A stretch of 64,000 nt of DNA from Paracoccaceae bacterium (GTDB lineage Bacteria; Pseudomonadota; Alphaproteobacteria; Rhodobacterales; Rhodobacteraceae), in the NCBI GenBank assembly GCA_020629115.1, contig JAHDDY010000008.1:3916-67915 (forward strand). The letters are read 5' to 3'. Both the position numbers and the translations under genes were made by a program. The notes below the pieces were generated by a model that did not search any database, was not told the DNA's origin, and worked only from the letters and a program-made list of their open reading frames with translations. The first letter of the stretch is position 1, and the number at the start of each line of letters is the position of its first letter. This document shows, piece by piece, positions 3,014 to 61,805 of this stretch.

Positions 3014-4084
3014 ATGGATACGCTCGATTTCCAGACCGACGACCGCCTCATGATTCGCCCTCTCGACCTGCCGTCGGTGCGCCCGCAAGCGGCCTGGCGC
3101 AACCGTGCGCTGTCCCGCGCCCGCGCCCCCGTCCCGGTGCTGGAGGATATCGCCGTATCGCTCGTGCCCGACACGCGGCTCGACTGGATGGGGGCGGGAA
3201 AGCGCGTCTCCATCGCGTTCTCGGCATCGGGGGAGGCGGGCTTCGTCACCACCGTCGTTCCCGTCGTCCAGCGCCTGCTTGCGCGAGCCGACCTGCCCGT
3301 CCGGCCAGATGCGCTCGACGCGGAGCTTGCCGCGCTGGCCATCGAGACCGTCCTGACGGAGCCGGTGGAGGCGCTCGAAGGGATGCTGGGCCGGTCCATC
3401 GCGCTTCACGCGCTCGATACCGTCTCGGATCGTCCCGATCTGGCGCATCTGTGTTTCGAAATGCGCATGGACGGGGACGGTCCGGCCTATCCGGGCACGA
3501 TCCACGCCCCCGCCGCGCTGCTCTCGGTCCTCGCCCGCGGCTGGATGGACCGGCCGGCCCTCGACGCGCCGCGGGAGGACGTGCGGCTGCCGCTCTCCTT
3601 CCGCGTCGCCTACACCGACCTGACCCTCTCGGCCCTGCGCAGCCTGCGGACGGGGGACGCGATGCTGTTCGACCGGATCGCGATGCAGGGCGGCGCGGCG
3701 GCGGCGCTGGGCGAGGCGATGCATAGCAGCGTGCGATTCGACGAAGAGGGCAACCTTCACCTCGCGGAGCCGTTCGCTGCCCCCGAACCTTACGGAATGG
3801 GAGAATTCCTGATGACAGACGACGATCCCGAACAGGCCGTACGCGCCGTCTCCGATGCCGATCTTGACGATCTGCCGGTGCGCCTCGTCTTCGAGGTCGG
3901 CCGGACCGACATGAGCGTCGCCGACCTGCGCGCGCTGACGGTCGGCGCGCCCCTGCCCCTCGACCGCCCCGCCTCCGCCGCGGTGCAGATCCTCGCCAAC
4001 GGGCGGCGGATCGGCGCGGGCGAGATGGTGATGATCGGCGAACAGCTCGGCGTGCGCATAACGCAGCTCAACGGCCATGGCTGA
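3014..4084 (+). CDS. sctQ: T3SS cytoplasmic ring / sorting platform protein SctQ (FliN/SpoA C-terminal domain)
   Basis: 356 aa. C-terminal SpoA-type segment LPVRLVFEVGRTDMSVADLRALTVGAPLPLDRPASAAVQILANGRRIGAGEMVMIGEQLGVRITQL. 8-nt overlap with sctR. Confidence 0.8.
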   Translation: MDTLDFQTDDRLMIRPLDLPSVRPQAAWRNRALSRARAPVPVLEDIAVSLVPDTRLDWMGAGKRVSIAFSASGEAGFVTTVVPVVQRLLARADLPVRPDALDAELAALAIETVLTEPVEALEGMLGRSIALHALDTVSDRPDLAHLCFEMRMDGDGPAYPGTIHAPAALLSVLARGWMDRPALDAPREDVRLPLSFRVAYTDLTLSALRSLRTGDAMLFDRIAMQGGAAAALGEAMHSSVRFDEEGNLHLAEPFAAPEPYGMGEFLMTDDDPEQAVRAVSDADLDDLPVRLVFEVGRTDMSVADLRALTVGAPLPLDRPASAAVQILANGRRIGAGEMVMIGEQLGVRITQLNGHG

Positions 4085-4733
4085 GGAACTGAACGCCAAC
4101 GTCCTGTCGCTCATCATCGTGGTGATGCTGCTCGGCTTCCTGCCCTTCGTGGCGGTTGCCGTGACGGCCTTCGCGAAGATCACGGTCGTCCTGCTGATCG
4201 TGCGCAACGCGCTCGGGGTGCAGCAGACGCCGCCGAACATGGTGATCTACGGCATCGCGCTGGTGCTGACCGTCTACATCGCCGCGCCGCTGGCGGCGCA
4301 ACTTCAGGGCATCCTGGCCGACCCGGCGCTGAACTTCGAGACGCTGGACGACTGGCTCGTCGTCTACGAGCAGGGGGTCGAGCCGATACGGGAATTCCTG
4401 CTGCGCCACGCGCGGCTCGACGACCGGGCCTTCTTCATGGAGGCGACGGCCTCGGTCTGGGGGCCGGAGATGGCGCAGGGCGTCGACAGCGAATCGCTCG
4501 CCGTCCTGGTGCCGGCCTTCCTCGTGTCGGAGCTGACCCGTGCGTTCGAGATCGGGTTCCTGCTGTACCTGCCGTTCCTGGCCATCGACCTCATCGTCTC
4601 GGCGGTGCTGATGTCGCTCGGCATGATGATGGTCTCGCCTATCATGATCGCGATTCCCTTCAAGCTGTTCCTGTTCGTGGCGGTCGACGGCTGGTCGCGC
4701 CTCGTCCAGGGCCTCGTCCTGAGCTACACATGA
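4077..4733 (+). CDS. sctR: T3SS export apparatus protein SctR (FliP family)
   Basis: 218 aa. FliP hallmark LVSELTRAFEIGFLLYLPFLAIDLIVSAVLMSLGMMMVSP. Confidence 0.95.
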   Translation: MAEELNANVLSLIIVVMLLGFLPFVAVAVTAFAKITVVLLIVRNALGVQQTPPNMVIYGIALVLTVYIAAPLAAQLQGILADPALNFETLDDWLVVYEQGVEPIREFLLRHARLDDRAFFMEATASVWGPEMAQGVDSESLAVLVPAFLVSELTRAFEIGFLLYLPFLAIDLIVSAVLMSLGMMMVSPIMIAIPFKLFLFVAVDGWSRLVQGLVLSYT

Positions 4734-4746
4734 GGAGGACGCACGG

Positions 4747-5016
4747 ATGACGGAGGACGTTCTCGCCCGCTACCTGCTGCTCGCGGCCCTGGCCAGCATG
4801 AAGAGCGCCGCCCCGCCGCTGATCGTGGCGGCCATCGTCGGCTTCATCGTCGCGCTCTTCCAGGGCGTGACGCAGATTCAGGACCAGAGCCTGCCGATCA
4901 CGCTCAAGATCCTCGTGGTCGGCGCGACCTTCCTCCTGTTCGGGGCGGCGCTGGCCAGCCCGGTGGTGATCCTCGCGGACGAGGCGCTGCGCATCTTCCC
5001 GACGGCCTCGCGATGA
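4747..5016 (+). CDS. sctS: T3SS export apparatus protein SctS (FliQ family)
   Basis: 89 aa, two hydrophobic helices, and QGVTQIQDQSLPITLKIL typical of FliQ/SctS. Confidence 0.9.
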   Translation: MTEDVLARYLLLAALASMKSAAPPLIVAAIVGFIVALFQGVTQIQDQSLPITLKILVVGATFLLFGAALASPVVILADEALRIFPTASR

Positions 5017-5099
5017 GGGGTGACCGACGATGACGACGCCTCGGCACGGGAGTGCGTCATTGACCGGCTCGACCGGCATCGAATGGCCTGCGCCGGGGG

Positions 5100-5906
5100 G
5101 TGCGGCCCATGCTTGAGTTGGTGGAATTCATCCTGCCCCTCATCGAGGCCGGTGCGCTGACCTTCGCGCGGCCCCTGGGCTTCATCATCGCCTTCCCGCT
5201 CTTCTCGTGGCTCGGGTTGCAGGGCATGATCCGGAACGTCACGGCCCTGGCCATCGGCGCGCCGTTCCTGACGCTGGTCTACACCCAGCTCGCCGCCTCG
5301 CCCGAGCCGCTGCCGGCCGAATACATCATGCTCCTCGCCGGCAAGGAATTCCTCGTCGGCCTGACGCTGGGGGTGGTCCTCGGCGTCCCGTTCTGGGGAG
5401 CGGAGATGGCGGGGGCCTATGTCGACGTGTACCGCGGCAGTTCGGCGGCCACGGTGGTCAGCCCGGACGCGATGGCGGAGCCGCTGGTCTCGGGCGCGAT
5501 CTTCTCCATCGCGCTGGTGGCGATCTTCCTCGCCATGGGGGGGCTGCGCATGGTGCTCGGCGTCCTCTACGAGAGCTACGACATATGGCCGTTCTTCCAG
5601 ATCGTGCCGCGTATCTCGGGCGACCTGTACCCGGTCTTCCTCGAAATCCTCGGCACCGTCGCGCGCATCGCGCTGACGCTGGGCGCGCCGCTGCTCATCG
5701 CCATGTTCGTCGCCGAGCTGGCGCTGGCCTTCACCAGCCGCTTCGCGCCGCAGATCAACATCTTCGATGCCATGCTCTCGCTCAAGAACATCGTCTTCCT
5801 CGTCGTCCTGCCGCCCTACCTGTACTTCCTCGCCCGCTACTACGGGTCGGAGGTGCTCGACCTGCCGGGCCTGACGGATATCCTGCGCCGGGTGGTCGGA
5901 CCATGA
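5100..5906 (+). CDS. sctT: T3SS export apparatus protein SctT (FliR family)
   Basis: 268 aa polytopic membrane protein in the FliR position. Start uncertain: GTG at 5100 or ATG at 5109. 4-nt overlap with sctU. Confidence 0.9.
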   Translation: MRPMLELVEFILPLIEAGALTFARPLGFIIAFPLFSWLGLQGMIRNVTALAIGAPFLTLVYTQLAASPEPLPAEYIMLLAGKEFLVGLTLGVVLGVPFWGAEMAGAYVDVYRGSSAATVVSPDAMAEPLVSGAIFSIALVAIFLAMGGLRMVLGVLYESYDIWPFFQIVPRISGDLYPVFLEILGTVARIALTLGAPLLIAMFVAELALAFTSRFAPQINIFDAMLSLKNIVFLVVLPPYLYFLARYYGSEVLDLPGLTDILRRVVGP

Positions 5907-6961
5907 GCGGCGATACCTCGGAGGAAAAATCCCTACCGCCCTCGGAGAAGAAGCTCCAGGAGGGCCGCAAGAAGGGGCAGATCGCCAAGAGCGCCGACAT
6001 GGTCTCGGCGATCGTGATGATCTTCCTCGTCGCCTATCTCGTCCTCGGCTGGTCCGTGATCGAGACCGCCTTCGCGCGGATGTTCGACACGGCGGGGCTG
6101 ACGGCGGCGCGCGGAGGGCCTGATTCGTGGAACATCGCCATCCGCGATACCTGGGCGGCGATGGGCACCATCATGCTGCCGCTCTACGGCGTCTCCTTCC
6201 TCGCCATCTTCCTCGGCTCGGTGATCTCCAACAAGGGCATCGTCGTCTCCTTCGATCAGGTGAAGCCCGACCTGAAGAAGATCCACCCCGTCGAGGGCTT
6301 CAAGAAGATCTTCAGCATCCGCAACTTCATCGAGTTCCTCAAGGCGCTGGTGAAGAGCATGTTGATCCTGCTCGTCCTGGCCGTGATCGGGTGGTGGGGC
6401 TTCCGGTCGATCATGCGGGCGCCGCTCTGCCGCCCGGACTGCTCCGACGACGTGCTGATGATCGTGGTCGTGCCGCTCGTCCTCGCGGCCATGGCGCTTT
6501 TCCTGATTTCCGCGCTCGTGGACATGACGCTTCAGAAATGGCTGTTCACCCGCGACATGAAGATGACCCATTCCGAGATGAAGCGGGAAATGAAGGAGAT
6601 CTACGGCGATCCCATGGTGCGCCGCGCCCGCAACGAGGCCCGGCGCGGGGATTCGGGGGGCGGCGGATCGGGCAAGGCGTCCAGCTTCCTCGATTCAACC
6701 GCACCGACGATTCTCGTCTGCTCGGGCGGGCAGATCGCGGTCGGCCTGCGCTACGTGCCCGGCGAGACGCCCGCGCCGATCGTCGTGGCGAAGGGCACCG
6801 GCGCACGGGCCGCCGCCCTGATCGCCGAGGCGGTGGGCATCGGAGCACCGGTCACGAACGACCCGGATCTCGCCCTGGCGCTGCTCCAGCAGGGTCGAAT
6901 CGAGACATTCGTGCCGGAGTCCCTTTTTAAGGAAGTGGCCCGCGTCATGAGAAAATCGTAG
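5903..6961 (+). CDS. sctU: T3SS export switch protein SctU (FlhB/YscU family) with a non-canonical autocleavage site
   Basis: 352 aa from ATG 5903, inside track ORF 5207..6961. N-terminal EKSLPPSEKKLQEGRKKGQIAKS, linker HSEMKREMKEIYGDPMVRRARNEARR, and C-terminal IAVGLRYVPGETPAPIVVAKGTG. The NPTH position reads SGGQ. Confidence 0.9.
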   Translation: MSGDTSEEKSLPPSEKKLQEGRKKGQIAKSADMVSAIVMIFLVAYLVLGWSVIETAFARMFDTAGLTAARGGPDSWNIAIRDTWAAMGTIMLPLYGVSFLAIFLGSVISNKGIVVSFDQVKPDLKKIHPVEGFKKIFSIRNFIEFLKALVKSMLILLVLAVIGWWGFRSIMRAPLCRPDCSDDVLMIVVVPLVLAAMALFLISALVDMTLQKWLFTRDMKMTHSEMKREMKEIYGDPMVRRARNEARRGDSGGGGSGKASSFLDSTAPTILVCSGGQIAVGLRYVPGETPAPIVVAKGTGARAAALIAEAVGIGAPVTNDPDLALALLQQGRIETFVPESLFKEVARVMRKS

Positions 6962-24584: not shown

Positions 24585-24622
24585 GCGATCCCCTTCCCCG
24601 TTCCGGCGGGGGAGGGGATCGC
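24585..24622 (+). other. Strong intercistronic stem-loop between the SBP and permease genes
   Basis: GCGATCCCCTTCCCCG (24585-24600) pairs with CGGGGGAGGGGATCGC (24607-24622): 16-bp stem with one mismatch. No U-tract follows. Confidence 0.5.
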
Positions 24623-32073: not shown

Positions 32074-32129
32074 TTCTTCTTATTTGCGCTACCGCCCTTC
32101 TGGCCGCTTGAGCGCGGGCCTTCGCGCTG

Positions 32130-32152
32130 CTGCCCCGGACCCGATCCGGGAC
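32130..32152. repeat. Single REP-like hairpin (CCCCGGA...TCCGGG family) downstream of tRNA-Arg
   Basis: CTGCCCCGGACCCGATCCGGGAC. The stem CCCGGA/TCCGGG resembles the arms of the 58708-58790 element. Confidence 0.45.
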
Positions 32153-32168
32153 AGCCTATGCGGAAGGG

Positions 32169-36742: not shown

Positions 36743-37257
36743 TCCGCATCGCCCCCGAGACGGCGGCGGATGGATGGGAGATCGAATACCTGCTCGACAC
36801 CGCCTTCGCGCCGGGGCGCACGGCCCTTTCCTCCTATCGCCTGCGCGAGGGCGTGGAGCCGGTTGGCCCGCTGTGCCTGACCGCGCGGGACGACGACGCG
36901 ATGGCCGCGCTCGCCGGATGCATCCGCTTCTGGCCCGTGCGCGTGGGGGATGCGGGCGAGGCGCTGCTGCTCGGCCCCGTGGCCACCCACCCGACGCGCC
37001 AGGGCGAGGGCATCGGCGCGAGGCTCATCCTGGAAAGCCTGGAGCGGGCCGAGGCGCTGGGCTGGGCGGCGTGCATCCTCGTCGGGGACGAGCCGTACTA
37101 CCGCCGCTTCGGCTTCGCCCGGTCCGGGACGCTGCGCTTTCCGCCTCCCACCAACCCCAACCGCGTCCTCGCCCGCGCATTGGTGCCCGGAGGGCTGGAC
37201 GGCCTTTCGGGCGACGTCACCCGCTTCGACTCCGCTCCGAGTCCTCAGGCGAGATAG
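36739..37257 (+). CDS. GNAT-family N-acetyltransferase
   Basis: 172 aa from GTG 36739 (GTGA overlap). [24 protein letters not shown] acetyl-CoA binding motif and YYRRFGF. Confidence 0.75.
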
Positions 37258-39146
37258 CCGTTCTCGCGCAGGAAGGCGAGAAGGTGCTCGGCGGCCTGCT
37301 CGGGGGTCTGGTCGGTCGTGGCGAGGCGGATCTCGGGGGCTTCGGGCGGCTCGTACGGGCTGTCGATGCCGGTGAAGTTCCTGATCTCGCCGCGCCGGGC
37401 CTTGGCGTACAGCCCCTTCACGTCCCGCGCCTCGGCGACCTCCAGAGGCGTGTCGACATGGACCTCGACGAACTCGCCCTCCGCCATCATCTGCCGCGCC
37501 ATGCGCCGCTCGGAGCGGAAGGGGGAGATGAAGCTGACCAGCACGATCAGCCCCGCCTCGACCATCAGCTTGCCGACCTCCGACACGCGGCGGATGTTCT
37601 CCACCCGGTCGGCATCGGTGAAGCCGAGATCCTTGTTCAGCCCGTGGCGCACGTTGTCCCCGTCGAGCAGCGCGGTATGGCGGCCCATCGCGTGCAACTC
37701 GCGCTCCAGCGCGTTGGCGATGGTGGACTTGCCGGAGCCGCTGAGGCCCGTGAACCACAGCATCGCGGGCCGCTGCCCCTTCAGCTCGGCCCGCGCGTCC
37801 TTGTCGACGGCCAGCGCCTGACGGTGGATGTTGGACGCCCGGCGCAGGGCGAAGTCGATCATCCCCACGCCGACCGTCTCGTTCGACAGCCGGTCGATCA
37901 GGATGAACCCGCCCATGTCGCGGTTCTCGGCATAGGGGTCGAAGGCGATGGTGCGGTCGAGGTTCAGGTTGCACACGCCGATCTCGTTGAGCGCCAGCGT
38001 CTTCGCCGCGAGATGCTCCATCGTGTTCACGTCGATGGCGTATTTCGGCGCGGCCACGGTCGCCTGCGCCGTCGCCGCGCCGGTCTTCATCAGGTAGGTG
38101 CGCCCGGGCAGCATCTCCTGCTCGTTCATCCAGAGGATATGTGCCTGGAACTGGTCGGCGGCGGGGGCGGGGGCATCCAACGCGCAGAGCACATCCCCGC
38201 GCGAGATGTCGATCTCGTCCTCCAGCGTCAGCGTGACGGACTGCCCCGCCACCGCCTCGGGCAGGTCGCCGTCCATCGCGACGATGGCGCGGACGGTGCT
38301 TTCCTTGGCCGAGGGCAGGGCCTTGACCCGGTCGCCGGGGCGCACGCTGCCCCCCGCGATCGTTCCCGCGAAGCCGCGGAAGTCGAGATCGGGGCGGTTG
38401 ACCCATTGCACCGGCAGGCGGAACGGCCCGTCCTGCGCCCCGTCCGCCACCTCCACCGTCTCCAGATAGGCCATGAGGGTCGGGCCGGCGTACCAGGGCG
38501 TCCGCGCCGACTTCTCGATGATGTTGTCCCCGCGCAGGGCCGACATGGGGATCGGCGTGACGGAAGCGAAATCGAGCGGCTTCGCGAACTCGGCATAGGC
38601 CTCGACGATCCCGTCGTGGACGGCGCGGTCGTAGCCGACCAGATCGAGCTTGTTGATGGCCAGCACCACGTGGCGGATGCCCAGCAGCGAGACGATGAAG
38701 CTGTGCCGCCGGGTCTGCGTCAGGATGCCCTTGCGCGCGTCGATCATCAGGATGGCGACATCCGCCGTCGAGGCCCCGGTGGCCATATTGCGCGTGTACT
38801 GTTCGTGGCCGGGTGTGTCGGCGACGATGAACTTGCGCCGGTCGGTCGAGAAGAAGCGGTAGGCCACGTCGATGGTGATGCCCTGCTCGCGCTCGGCGGC
38901 GAGGCCGTCGACGAGGAGGGCGAAGTCGATCTCCTGCCCCTGCGTCCCCACGCGCCTGCTATCCGCCTCCAGCGCGGCGAGCTGATCCTCGAAGATCATC
39001 TTCGATTCGTACAGCAGCCGCCCGATGAGCGTGGATTTCCCGTCGTCGACGGAGCCGCAGGTGATGAACCGCAGCAGCGACTTGGTCTCGTGCGCCTTGA
39101 GGTAGCCGAGGATGTCCTCGGCGATCATGTCGGAGCGGTGGGCCAT
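37245..39146 (-). CDS. cysN: Bifunctional sulfate adenylyltransferase subunit 1 / adenylylsulfate kinase (CysN-CysC fusion)
   Basis: GTPase G1 motif [16 protein letters not shown]-terminal APS kinase P-loop [11 protein letters not shown]. Start taken at MAHRSDM (39146), within track ORF 37245..39200. Confidence 0.9.
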
Positions 39147-39188
39147 CAGGATGCCTCTTTCGAGAAACGATACGCGGTATCCCCGCTT

Positions 39189-39233
39189 CCCCGGATGCAC
39201 CGCAGCACGCAGTGATGCGGTGCTGGTCCGGGG
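39189..39233. repeat. 45-nt hairpin repeat, left flank of the GIY-YIG gene
   Basis: CCCCGGATGCACCGCAGCACGCAGTGATGCGGTGCTGGTCCGGGG. It is self-complementary (CCCCGGA/TCCGGGG and GCACCGCA/TGCGGTGC). 39/45 identical to the reverse complement of 39584-39628. Confidence 0.8.
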
Positions 39234-39249
39234 TTCCGGCCTTCGACGA

Positions 39250-39540
39250 TCAGAGCGGAATCTCGTTCGTCAGGTCGCACCAGCCGGGATTGCGGGATGC
39301 GACCGGATTCTCCTTCCACGCCCGCCGCCATCTCTTGATCGCCTTCTCCCGGGTCAGCGCATCGCGCAGGGTCCCGTGCGTCTCGAAATAGACGAGTCGA
39401 TAGGTGGCGTGCTCGGCGGTCCATGCCTCGACCGCGCCCGCCCGGTGCTGCGCAATTCGTCTGCGCAGGTCGTTCGTCTGGCCGGTATAGAGATACCGGC
39501 CATCCTCCGAAGACAGGATGTAGACGAACCACGCCGCCAT
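39250..39540 (-). CDS. Small GIY-YIG nuclease-domain protein (YhbQ/URI-like)
   Basis: 96 aa from [33 protein letters not shown] (GIY...YTG motifs), within track ORF 39250..39597. Lies between cysD and cysNC in the same orientation. Confidence 0.85.
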
Positions 39541-39583
39541 GAGCGCTCCCTGCAGGTTCCGACGCCTTGCCGCGAACGGCGGA

Positions 39584-39628
39584 CCCCGGACCAGCACAGC
39601 ACCATTGCATGGTGCGGCGCATCCGGGG
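39584..39628. repeat. 45-nt hairpin repeat, right flank of the GIY-YIG gene (inverted copy of 39189-39233)
   Basis: CCCCGGACCAGCACAGCACCATTGCATGGTGCGGCGCATCCGGGG. The reverse complement matches the left copy at 39 of 45 positions. Confidence 0.8.
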
Positions 39629-39663
39629 AAACGGGTCGGGGAGCGCCATTCTTTCCGCTGGCA

Positions 39664-40569
39664 TCAGAAATACCCCTCCTGCTTCTTCTTCTCCATCGAG
39701 GCCGCCGAATCGTGGTCGATCATGCGGCCCTGGCGTTCGGAGGTGGTGGTGAGGAGCATCTCCTGGATGATCTCGGGCAGGGTCGTCGCCTCGCTCTCGA
39801 CCGCGCCCGTGAGGGGCCAGCAGCCCAGCGTGCGGAAGCGGACCGTCCTCTCCTGCACCTCCTCGCCCTCGTGCAGCGCGATGCGGTCGAAGTCGTCGAT
39901 CATGATCAGCGTGCCGTCGCGCTCGATCACCGGGCGCGGCGCGGCGTAGTAGAGCGGGACGATAGGGATGGCTTCGAGGTGGATGTACTGCCAGATGTCC
40001 AGCTCGGTCCAGTTCGACAGCGGGAAGACGCGGATGCTCTCGCCCGGCGCCTTGCGCGCGTTGTAGAGCTTCCACAACTCGGGGCGCTGGTTCTTCGGGT
40101 CCCAGCGATGCGCCGCCGTGCGGAAGGAGAAGATGCGCTCCTTGGCGCGCGATTTCTCCTCGTCGCGCCGCGCCCCGCCGAAGGCCGCGTCGAACTTGTA
40201 CTTGTCCAGCGCCTGCTTGAGCGCGACCGTCTTCATGATGTCGGTATGCACGCTGGACCCGTGGGTGAAGGGACCGATGCCCTGCTTCACGCCCTCCTCG
40301 TTGGTATGCACGATCAGCTCCATGCCCGACTCGGCGGCCATGCGGGCGCGGAAGTCGTACATCGCCTTGAACTTCCACGTCGTGTCCACGTGCACGAGAG
40401 GGAAGGGCGGCGGGGCGGGATGGAAGGCCTTCCGCGCGACGTGCAGCAGCACGGCCGAATCCTTGCCGATGGAGTACAGCATGGCCGGGTTCTCGGCCTC
40501 GGCCACCACCTCGCGGAAGATGTGGATGGCCTCGGCCTCCAGCCGTTGCAGATGGGTCAGGTCGATCAT
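39664..40569 (-). CDS. cysD: Sulfate adenylyltransferase subunit 2
   Basis: 301 aa from [21 protein letters not shown] (start 40569), within track ORF 39664..40722. PAPS-reductase-fold motif [10 protein letters not shown]. Confidence 0.95.
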
Positions 40570-41351
40570 GCGGGGTCCTTGAGCGTCACGCCCTCGGCAT
40601 AGGCGATGAAGTGCGGGTTCTCGAAACCGGACTTGCCGTAGGCGAGCGGCGTGCCTCCGGGCCAGGCATCGACATGCCCTCCGGCGGCGCGCAGCACGGC
40701 GTGGCCGGCTGCGGTATCCCATTCCATGGTCCGCCCTAACCGCGGGTAAAGATCGGCCTCCCCCGCCGCCAGGAGGCAGAACTTGAGCGAACTGCCCGCC
40801 CCCTTGAAATCCCCGACGGCATAGCGCGCGATATACGCGTCCGTCGCCGCGTCGCGGTGGGATTTCGAGGCGACGACGTTCAGCGCGGCATCGTCCGGGG
40901 CGGCGCAGCGGATCGCCCGGGCCGGGCCGTCGCCGTCCCGCATCCGGGCGCGGCCATCGTCATCGGTCCAGAACAACCGGTCGAGCGCCGGCGCGAAGAC
41001 GACGCCGCGCAGGGGCACGCCATTCTCGATCAGGGCGATGTTGACGGTGAAGTCCCCGCCGCGCTTCACGAACTCCTTCGTCCCGTCGAGGGGATCGACC
41101 AGGAAGAACCGCGATCCGGCGGCGGCGGCATCGTGGCTCTCGGCCCGCTCCTCCGTCACCACCGGAATATGGGGAAAGGCCCGCTCCAGGACTGCCCCGA
41201 TCACCCGGTCGGCGGCGAGGTCCGCCTCTGTCACCGGCGAGCGATCCGCCTTGGCCCGGGCGACGAAGTCCGTGGCGTAGATATCCATGATCGCGGCACC
41301 CGCCCGGCGCGCGCTGTCGAGAAGGACGTCGGCGAGGCCGGTCGGCAGCAT
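40566..41351 (-). CDS. cysQ: 3'(2'),5'-bisphosphate nucleotidase CysQ (inositol monophosphatase family)
   Basis: 261 aa from MLPTGLADV (start 41351). [12 protein letters not shown] and [10 protein letters not shown] motifs. ATGA overlap with cysD. Confidence 0.85.
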
Positions 41352-58707: not shown

Positions 58708-58790
58708 ACTCTGCCCCGGACTTGATCCGGGGCCTGTTCGAGCATCGCGCCTCATGGTGAAAGGCCCCGGATCGGGGTCCGGGGCAGAGT
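58708..58790. repeat. REP-like paired-hairpin element between the EamA transporter gene and folD
   Basis: Left arm CTCTGCCCCGGACTTGATCCGGGGCC, right arm GGCCCCGGATCGGGGTCCGGGGCAGAG. They form a near-perfect 26-nt inverted repeat, and each arm is a hairpin. Confidence 0.7.
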
Positions 58791-61678: not shown

Positions 61679-61805
61679 TCGCCGATCGTCCGTCATCGCC
61701 GGACTTGTTCCGACGATCCATCTCGCCGCCCGCGCGATACCGCTGACCGAGGGATGGACCCCCGGAACGGGTCCGAGGGTGACCGATGATATCGACGTCG
61801 GACGC

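Follow-up and report, generated by a model that had tools for sequence, protein, structure and literature searches.

The genes cysD and cysN are normally adjacent or overlapping, and in relatives of the bacterium considered here they abut or overlap. In the stretch of 64,000 nucleotides that was analysed as a whole, and which is referred to as the window in the following, cysD and a cysNC fusion gene are separated by about 0.5 kb containing a small GIY-YIG nuclease gene between two inverted hairpin repeats. This raises the question of what kind of element the gene and its hairpins represent and how they came to lie within a biosynthetic operon. That a GIY-YIG ORF lies between the two genes in the same orientation had already been stated in the first-pass annotation of this DNA and is confirmed by Pfam domains and ORF coordinates. 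A cysQ-like gene is the first of the resulting cysQ-cysD-(ssn)-cysNC cluster, all four members of which are encoded on the minus strand, and an AGGGAG Shine-Dalgarno-like motif is found a few nucleotides upstream of the ATG of the nuclease gene. The window cysD is 100% identical to P0014, and a tblastn search of the 64-kb window for a GIY-YIG paralogue elsewhere returned none. In the direction of transcription, the features are:

40566-41351, minus strand: cysQ-like inositol-phosphatase-family gene (ORF list; PF00459 in the gene calls of the identical locus L001)
39664-40569, minus strand: cysD, sulfate adenylyltransferase subunit 2, the upstream neighbour (PF01507 PAPS_reduct, E 2.6e-56)
39662-39667, minus strand: left copy of the direct repeat CTGATG, containing the cysD stop codon TGA
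39583-39635, minus strand: upstream hairpin repeat, a long SRM/REP variant (inverted-repeat arm, fold, covariation, profile match E 1e-15)
39250-39540, minus strand: ssn-type gene for a 96-aa single-domain GIY-YIG nuclease (Pfam PF01541, E 6.8e-17)
39182-39234, plus strand: downstream hairpin repeat, inverted with respect to the upstream copy (inverted-repeat arm, fold, profile match E 1e-16)
39144-39149, minus strand: right copy of the direct repeat CTGATG, containing the cysNC start codon ATG
37245-39146, minus strand: cysNC, a fusion of sulfate adenylyltransferase subunit 1 and APS kinase, the downstream neighbour (GTP_EFTU, GTP-eEF1A_C and APS_kinase domains)

With respect to the protein, BLASTP aligned it without gaps over 85 aa to SsnA from Neisseria gonorrhoeae, the gonococcal orthologue and not N. 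meningitidis SsnA being used for this comparison, at 44% identity (E 6e-25). The product of ssnA is a GIY-YIG protein of about 94 aa with a single domain (CDD cd10448), which no longer cleaves after the exchange Y6A, Y17A or E64A (Chenal et al. 2025, Nat Commun 16:2388, PMC11893778), and it is with Y6, Y17 and E64 that Y7, Y18 and E65 of the window protein align, again gapless. The gonococcal sequences, which are two N. gonorrhoeae chromosomes filed as plasmids in PLSDB, were found by tblastn with the window protein (E 2e-15 in a 7.3-Gb database), and the ORF matched there can be taken as the SsnA orthologue because it is 94 aa long, carries Y6, Y17 and E64, and is surrounded by NTS copies (16 in 3.2 kb). 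The E-value of the window protein also lies below the limit of E < 1e-10 by which Chenal et al. (2025) recognise SsnA homologues, and ORFs flanked by exact published NTS copies are 42-49% identical to it (E ~1e-23).

Across 85 homologues, residues Y7, Y18, G20, R28, H32, E65, K69, W71, R73, W75, K76 and N84 are essentially invariant, the catalytic Y7, Y18 and E65 being conserved in 83-85 of the 85. PF01541 spans residues 4-78 of 96 and is the sole domain, so that neither an extra DNA-binding domain nor a Y1_Tnp domain is present, and an AF2 model (pLDDT 92.6) consists of one compact beta-beta-alpha-alpha-beta-alpha-alpha domain, i.e., a bare GIY-YIG fold. All Foldseek matches of this model are GIY-YIG domains, with UPF0213 protein BH0048 (30% identity), Slx1 and the N-terminal domain of UvrC as the nearest solved structures. 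The label "YhbQ-type" used in the first-pass annotation is therefore imprecise, as UPF0213 provides the nearest structures at 30% identity compared to 44% for SsnA. The protein could not be placed in an informative family by searches of PADLOC, PHROGs or NCBIfam, the last of which has no specific model for it. When the window is compared to its closest relatives at the same cysD-cysNC site (L004 and L008), CysD is 91-92% and CysNC 88-89% identical but the nuclease only 67-68%, with a dN/dS of 0.08-0.20 at a dS of 0.5-1.1. Judged by these substitution rates, the nuclease gene is fast-evolving but evidently functional and under purifying selection.

The genomic surroundings point in the same direction as the protein. 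The Neisseria repeat NTS (CGTCATTCCCGCGMAVGCGGGAATCYRG) and the related SRM motifs are spatially tied to ssnA, SRM being located near 71% of the ssnA homologues and on both sides in 42% (PMC11893778), and the arrangement by which an Ssn locus is recognised, a gene flanked by inverted hairpins (SRM, 20-50 nt), is also present in the window. Neither of the two window hairpins matches the published SRM search pattern HGTCWYN(0-2)YYVSBRHN(0-5)WNVSBRGN(0-2)RNCYNB, whose sole match in the window lies at 16232-16262. The pattern serves as a heuristic for searches, not as a definition, and of 87 homologous loci it matched only 20 on both sides. Taken together, sequence comparison makes it probable (about 0.85) that the window cassette is a member of the Ssn family of nucleases and hairpin repeats, with a variant long hairpin. 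The earlier impression that no association between REP sequences and GIY-YIG proteins had been described has to be revised, as the Ssn/NTS-SRM system is exactly such an association (PMC11893778).

As to the hairpins, two 45-nt repeats had been quoted in the first-pass annotation for 39189-39233 and 39584-39628, and they are indeed found there, with 39 of 45 positions identical after reverse-complementing. The inverted repeat extends further, to 53 nt per arm (39182-39234 and 39583-39635) with 87% complementarity, and the 53-nt arms sit 42 and 15 nt from the ends of the ssn ORF. A 20-nt arm probe allowing up to three mismatches recognised just these 2 sites in 64 kb, and 2 matches were obtained in 0 of 100 shuffles. 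The proposal that each copy forms a long hairpin is borne out both by covariation and by folding energies: on the gene strand, the downstream arm alone folds with -37.7 kcal/mol (z -5.4) and the upstream arm with -32.0 kcal/mol (z -3.9), 0 of 200 shuffles being as good in either case. The hairpin is built from a CGCTT/CGTTT head, an outer stem of 7-8 bp followed by an inner stem of 12 bp (20 pairs), a 3-nt loop and a TCC tail, the upstream copy reading CCCGTTT-CCCCGGATGC...GGTCCGGGG-TCC from head to tail on the gene strand. Both heads point outward from the ssn-type gene.

Seven hairpin copies from three genomes (window, L004 and L008) can be aligned without gaps across the hairpin. In these copies the 20-bp helix is 94% paired, compared to 27-46% in controls with slid partners, and six helix pairs change on both sides; all but one of the compensatory changes fall into the inner stem. 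In turn, little or no variation is seen in the outer stem CCCCGGATGC/GGTCCGGGG and the 5' flank GCT across 24 copies, some of them from a marine relative. The middle of the hairpin is thus constrained in structure only, and its base and flanks are constrained in sequence. Such a combination is expected of a hairpin that is recognised by a protein, and the conserved outer stem and flank fit the published finding that SsnA reads the palindrome sequence together with adjacent bases.

A possible source of such hairpins are the CGTC-tagged REPs, which are mostly found in Alphaproteobacteria and "apparently lack a dedicated transposase" (Di Nocera et al. 2013, PMC3733652). They are defined by an unpaired CGTC (or TGTC/CCTC) head, a stem of 8-9 bp beginning with A-T pairs, a loop of 4-5 nt and a CCA tail, and each genome has many of them dispersed in intergenic regions, mostly as inverted dimers (PMC3733652). 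Two kinds of intermediate were encountered. The homologous locus L079 carries the intermediate CGTCACCCCGGA...TCCGGGGTCCA, and soil metagenome contigs carry the intermediate form CGTTCCCCGGATGC...GGTCCGGGGTCCA. Set against a canonical motif such as CGTCA-CCCCGGA...TCCGGGG-TCCA, for which L079 is again the example, the window hairpin has its 12-bp covarying inner stem in place of the loop. The intermediates suggest that the window hairpin may descend from the CGTC-tagged REP family.

Within the 64-kb window, neither blastn-short nor an nhmmer profile of 24 copies detected further copies of the long hairpin beyond the two arms. A search with the pattern TTCCCCGGATGC-N(22-30)-GGTCCGGGG, by comparison, recovered 83 metagenome stretches, most of which represent the soil variant. 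About ten further loci from a marine relative carry exactly the window-type head CGCTTCCCCGGATGC; they belong to the marine assemblies in which the cysD-ssn-cysNC loci L124 and L157 were also found, and they resemble these two in coverage and G + C content. Most of the marine copies form inverted doublets that enclose a spacer of about 21 nt and no gene. They share their -> <- geometry with the hairpins around the ssn gene, and the cassette therefore looks like a doublet with a nuclease gene in its spacer, in the way that RAYT genes relate to REPINs. Canonical CGTC doublets are also found in the window itself, at 16178-16262 and 61691-61784. Hence the suggestion that REP-type hairpins are tied to this nuclease is upheld in so far as the same hairpin type is dispersed, mostly without a gene, in a close marine relative; the expected co-occurrence of repeat copies with GIY-YIG paralogues is not the rule, since a GIY-YIG gene lies nearby in only 2 of the 80 hairpin-bearing metagenome stretches examined and the other 78 are without one.

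The combination of gene and hairpins is not confined to the cys operon. A scan of species-representative genomes yielded more than 510 relatives of the nuclease in many phyla, and 60 of 84 testable homologous loci (~70%) have an inverted repeat around the ORF that clearly exceeds shuffled controls. Across these loci, hairpin sequences are lineage-specific, with recurring arm types such as CGTCATTCCCGCGAAAGCGGGAATCCAG. Of the 20 loci in which the published SRM pattern is matched both upstream and downstream of the gene, 14 have the heads pointing outward as in the window. Amongst the close relatives, L005 lies between serS and surE and L006 adjoins gcvT, and the nucleases of both, like those of L004 and L008, are bracketed by inverted hairpins of differing sequence.

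Evidence for an insertion comes from the cysD-cysN junction of relatives, four of which lack the cassette:

L089: CysD 90% identical to that of the window, junction TTCTAACATGGCC, empty
L090: CysD 88% identical, junction TTCTAAGATGGCC, empty
L091: CysD 85% identical, junction TTCTGATGGCT, empty
L092: CysD 84% identical, junction TTCTGATGGCC, empty

Two of these four empty junctions read TTCTGATGGCC. In L091 and L092 the cysD stop overlaps the cysN start, and CTGATG is present there in a single copy. In the occupied genomes the same hexamer stands at both ends of the insert, which measures 518 bp in the window, 638 bp in L004 and 539 bp in L008, and it is located at a variable distance of 9-37 nt outside the hairpins. 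The 6-bp repeat represents one insertion event common to these three genomes, and it is not clean in a fourth occupied genome, L088. That an insertion into an overlapping junction could be tolerated would be explained by a duplication of CTGATG, since a duplicated stretch that includes TGATG would restore the stop as well as the start codon. The comparison of junctions that had been proposed earlier has thus yielded both empty sites and a direct repeat at the insert ends, and of the original description as a miniature mobile cassette with terminal inverted repeats the insertion stands, while the size of 440 bp has to be corrected to 518 bp.

In L088, cysD is 93-95% identical to that of the other occupied genomes and the nuclease only 48-54%; its cassette has short hairpins (TCTGCCCCGGGCTTGATCCGGGGCCTGTC) and no clean duplication. 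In trees of cysD and of cysD+cysN the four occupied genomes all fall together, with weak support (41-45%). The junction may have been occupied by two different Ssn lineages, a long-hairpin type as in the window and a short-hairpin type as in L088; two independent insertions and one ancestral insertion, after which the cassette was replaced or diverged rapidly, are both possible. The short hairpins of L088 resemble those beside a paralogue in a Neomegalonema MAG (L009) as well as a gene-less doublet in the window (58710-58788).

We propose that the window protein is an Ssn endonuclease which, by analogy with the published enzyme, would cut ssDNA at specific sites, and that the flanking hairpins are its cognate Ssn-related motifs, presumably a long-stem derivative of the alphaproteobacterial CGTC REPs, in the usual layout of hairpin -> gene <- hairpin with the heads outward. 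An ancestor of a Neomegalonema-like lineage would have received the 518-bp cassette at the overlapping stop/start TGATG of cysD and cysNC, where duplication of CTGATG would have regenerated the cysD stop as well as the cysNC start and the operon would have survived, and from then on the cassette would have been inherited vertically under purifying selection. Judging from L008, the source organism is itself probably related to Neomegalonema (Rhodobacterales). SsnA binds its hairpin exclusively as ssDNA and cleaves just one of the two strands, a few nucleotides 5' of the motif; it does not bind RNA, is inactive on dsDNA and depends for cleavage on the three bases 5' of the palindrome (PMC11893778). 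If the window protein behaves alike, it would bind the hairpin only as single-stranded DNA, during replication or on incoming DNA, would recognise it via the invariant outer stem and flanks, and would cut the head-to-tail strand a few nucleotides 5' of the head. Since the published cuts lie 5' of the head and the heads point outward here, one cut would be expected on either side of the cassette, in the minus strand shortly above 39635 and in the plus strand shortly below 39182. The cleavage specificity itself probably differs from that of SsnA, as the three bases by which SsnA cleavage is controlled lie 5' of the palindrome.

Whether the nuclease also moves its own gene is a separate matter. 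The hairpin-ssn-hairpin unit could be an autonomous or recently autonomous transposable element in which the nuclease serves as transposase with help from the host, and in which gene-less doublets are non-autonomous derivatives comparable to REPINs. Such a reading would account for a 6-bp direct repeat bounding the insert at a site that is empty in relatives, for terminal inverted hairpins of 53 nt, for the gene-less -> <- doublets, spaced by about 21 nt, that both the marine relative and the window contain, and for a different Ssn lineage with short hairpins and 48-54% identity at the same junction in L088; an IS-like layout has also been noted in the original work (PMC11893778). However, no second copy of the cassette, whether identical or nearly so, was encountered anywhere, the direct repeat lies outside the hairpins at a distance that varies between 9 and 37 nt, the host tree allows for a single insertion, and the three cassettes with long hairpins are old orthologues (dS 0.5-1.1) that evolve under purifying selection, as would be the case for a domesticated gene. 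In addition, GIY-YIG nucleases are not known to perform strand transfer. A second independent footprint was sought twice without success: at serS-ssn-surE (L005) there is no clean empty site, the relatives having hicAB or rearranged spacers, and amongst plasmids the cassette of the Rhizobium tumorigenes group is fixed in 8 of 8 related plasmids, while that of CIAT894 has no close relatives and gave no footprint. None of the papers later than Chenal et al. (2025) that the literature search covered provides mobility data on Ssn cassettes. Autonomous transposition of the window cassette is accordingly a tentative reading which we rather doubt, and the same reserve applies to the broader conjecture that Ssn cassettes are or were a self-mobilising class of IS with a ~95-aa GIY-YIG ssDNA nuclease as their sole protein and with CGTC doublets as their non-autonomous progeny. 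The insertion footprint at the cysD-cysN junction provides modest new evidence that Ssn cassettes move.

The hairpins might also act mainly as RNA elements (stabiliser, processing or attenuation sites) in a cysQ-cysD-cysNC transcript, with the nuclease gene as a mere passenger. Co-transcription is plausible given the single orientation of the genes and the lack of a promoter or terminator consensus between them, and as RNA the hairpins are very stable (-32 to -38 kcal/mol). REP hairpins of Escherichia coli protect upstream mRNA from 3' exonucleases, and this possibility is also raised by Di Nocera et al. (PMC3733652). Against this, the layout recurs in unrelated contexts (60 of 84 loci) and thus belongs to the cassette rather than to the cys operon, conservation of the outer stem and flanks extends to their sequence and is not limited to structure, SsnA does not bind RNA (PMC11893778), and relatives L089 to L092 manage without the insert. 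An Rfam scan of 38800-40000 at E <= 1 gave no match, and terminator and promoter scans found no U-tract and no site at the hairpins. The suggestion that the hairpins are processing or attenuation sites is therefore unsupported, there being no U-tract terminator and no RNA binding by the published enzyme; a primary role in RNA is improbable, and an RNA-level role in the cys operon as a side effect is possible. As occupied and empty alleles of the same site exist among relatives and GIY-YIG is a classic homing-endonuclease fold, a free-standing homing endonuclease similar to the phage Seg enzymes, which would cut the empty cysD/cysN junction as dsDNA and spread through repair-mediated homing, was considered as well. 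It was rejected as very improbable because the protein has just 96 aa and no DNA-binding domain and is closely related to enzymes for which inactivity on dsDNA has been shown; moreover, the homologues reside at many unrelated sites, and homing creates no target-site duplications. A chance ORF was likewise considered and rejected.

If the locus is read as an Ssn nuclease with its hairpin repeats, the cassette is not a new kind of element, since the link between GIY-YIG proteins and REP-type hairpins was published in 2025. Its long-stem hairpin is missed by the published SRM pattern, so that surveys based on the pattern undercount pairs of Ssn genes and repeats, and the range of cleavage specificities usable as ssDNA tools may be wider than catalogued. 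The occupied and empty junctions together with the 6-bp duplication constitute a concrete footprint, whereas IS-like cassettes were merely hypothesised in the Ssn paper; should the self-mobilising reading be true, the change from TTCTGATGGCC to CTGATG-[518-bp cassette]-CTGATG would be the first documented footprint. Gene-less doublets alongside a gene-carrying cassette in turn support the parallel to REPINs and RAYTs, and this bears on the question of what mobilises CGTC REPs, as raised by Di Nocera et al. (2013, PMC3733652). Footprint and doublet parallel are modest additions to the published work.

Compared to the Ssn/NTS-SRM system of Neisseria, the window cassette has in common a GIY-YIG protein of about 94 aa, inverted flanking hairpins and a repeat that is dispersed in related genomes. 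It differs by its hairpin of 45-53 nt, in which the inner stem is long and covarying and the head is CGCTT/CGTTT instead of CGTCA, by its position inside a biosynthetic operon with two copies only in 64 kb, and by a host for which no role in natural transformation is known. With the CGTC REPs, the hairpins share a palindrome with asymmetric unpaired head and tail, the occurrence in Alphaproteobacteria and, in the marine relative, the arrangement mostly as inverted dimers, but they have neither the literal CGTC head nor the stem of 8-9 bp, the loop of 4-5 nt and the CCA tail.

Proteins of the UPF0213/YhbQ type (PDB 1zg2, BH0048, and 1ywl, EF2693) are of similar size and have the same bare GIY-YIG fold. 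However, identity is only about 30%, profile E-values reach only 1e-10 and 6e-8, the C-terminal motif K-x-W-x-R-x-W-K...N-P-x-W that is invariant in Ssn-type proteins is absent from UPF0213 proteins, and an association with hairpins is known for the Ssn type and none for UPF0213. Elements of the IS200/IS605 group resemble the cassette in their small size and in subterminal hairpins that are recognised as ssDNA, but they use an HUH transposase and create no target duplication, in contrast to the GIY-YIG protein and the 6-bp direct repeat of the window.

The authors of the Ssn study likened NTS-ssnA-NTS to an IS, drew the parallel to RAYTs and REPs and raised a domestication hypothesis (PMC11893778), so that the RAYT analogy of the first-pass annotation is apt and had a precedent. 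As with RAYTs and REPINs, a single-copy nuclease gene lies between inverted REP hairpins of a type that is dispersed as doublets in the marine relative, the gene is vertically inherited, and the enzyme recognises hairpins as ssDNA, which for the window protein would hold by analogy. The difference resides in the enzyme, which has a GIY-YIG fold here and the HUH/Y1 fold of IS200/IS605 TnpA (PF01797) there; the two systems thus share a layout but not an ancestry.

Beyond the cassette between cysD and cysNC, the window carries further REP-like hairpins, most of them arranged as inverted doublets:

16178-16262: canonical CGTC-type REP/SRM inverted doublet, gene-less; CGTCATTGCCGGGCTCGACCCGGCAATCCAGG, then CGTCACACCCGGGCTTGACCCGGGTGTCCAG inverted, with a spacer of 22 nt
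58710-58788: inverted doublet of a short CCCCGGA...TCCGGGG hairpin, gene-less; CTCTGCCCCGGACTTGATCCGGGGCCTGT, then inverted
61691-61784: CGTC-headed hairpin doublet; CGTCATCGCCGGACTTGTTCCGACGATCCA, then its inverted partner
32129-32155: solo hairpin; GCTGCCCCGGACCCGATCCGGGACAGC

With the elements at 61691-61784 and 32129-32155 counted along with the others, the density of REP-like doublets in the window amounts to about one per 15 kb. The doublet at 16178-16262 is flanked by two minus-strand ORFs, and of its two hairpins the published SRM pattern picks up the second alone. The hairpin type at 58710-58788 is that found around the different Ssn gene at the cysD-cysNC junction of a relative (L088) as well as around the paralogue in a Neomegalonema MAG (L009), and this shared type suggests that a second Ssn/hairpin pair is, or formerly was, present in the genome from which the window derives. 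At 24585-24622 lies the longest of the window's simple hairpins (stem 16 bp, GCGATCCCCTTCCCCG...CGGGGGAGGGGATCGC), whose sequence bears no relation to that of the Ssn hairpins.

In one of the relatives having the long-hairpin cassette at the same site (L004), the long hairpin is present a third time, directly upstream of the cassette (3838-3885), where it forms a head-to-head dimer with the left arm of the latter; hairpins therefore accumulate beside existing hairpins. In comparisons of the window's nuclease gene (39250-39540) with its counterparts in L004 and in a further such relative, L008, dS was 1.0-1.1, as opposed to 0.58-0.71 for the flanking cysD and cysNC in the same genome pairs, a difference for which either a looser constraint on codons or gene conversion with paralogous cassettes as donors could be responsible.

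In the relative L092, where the cysD-cysN site is empty, a Y1_Tnp (IS200/RAYT-type) gene is located immediately downstream of cysNC (5966-6604), and a different hairpin-associated nuclease type thus occupies the same neighbourhood. The serS-surE spacer of Rhodomicrobium-like relatives is a hot spot for small cassettes, containing the Ssn cassette in L005, a hicAB toxin-antitoxin pair in L176, hicB alone in L177, and 320 nt with a hicB remnant in L178. Directly downstream of the Ssn cassette adjoining the gcv operon in L006, a gene with an Sf6_terminase-type domain (4382-5161) may be a prophage remnant.

The gonococcal ssnA orthologue, which lies within the stretch 1880787-1884041 of NZ_CP119140.1, is without listed annotation in that record. 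PLSDB files complete chromosomes, namely of N. gonorrhoeae (2.17 Mb) and Aeromonas caviae (4.9 Mb), as plasmids, the records concerned being NZ_CP119140.1, NZ_CP119142.1 and NZ_AP026896.1.

Finally, a long hairpin related to these, CGTTCCCCGGATGC[AT]GCGCAGCGCG..GCGGTGCGCTGCTGGTCCGGGGTCCA[TC], occurs in about 60 solo copies on soil metagenome contigs (L093-L172), and no GIY-YIG gene was found in the same locus as any of these. This hairpin constitutes an abundant soil-bacterial REP family, which is intermediate between the canonical CGTC REPs and the long hairpin of the window.
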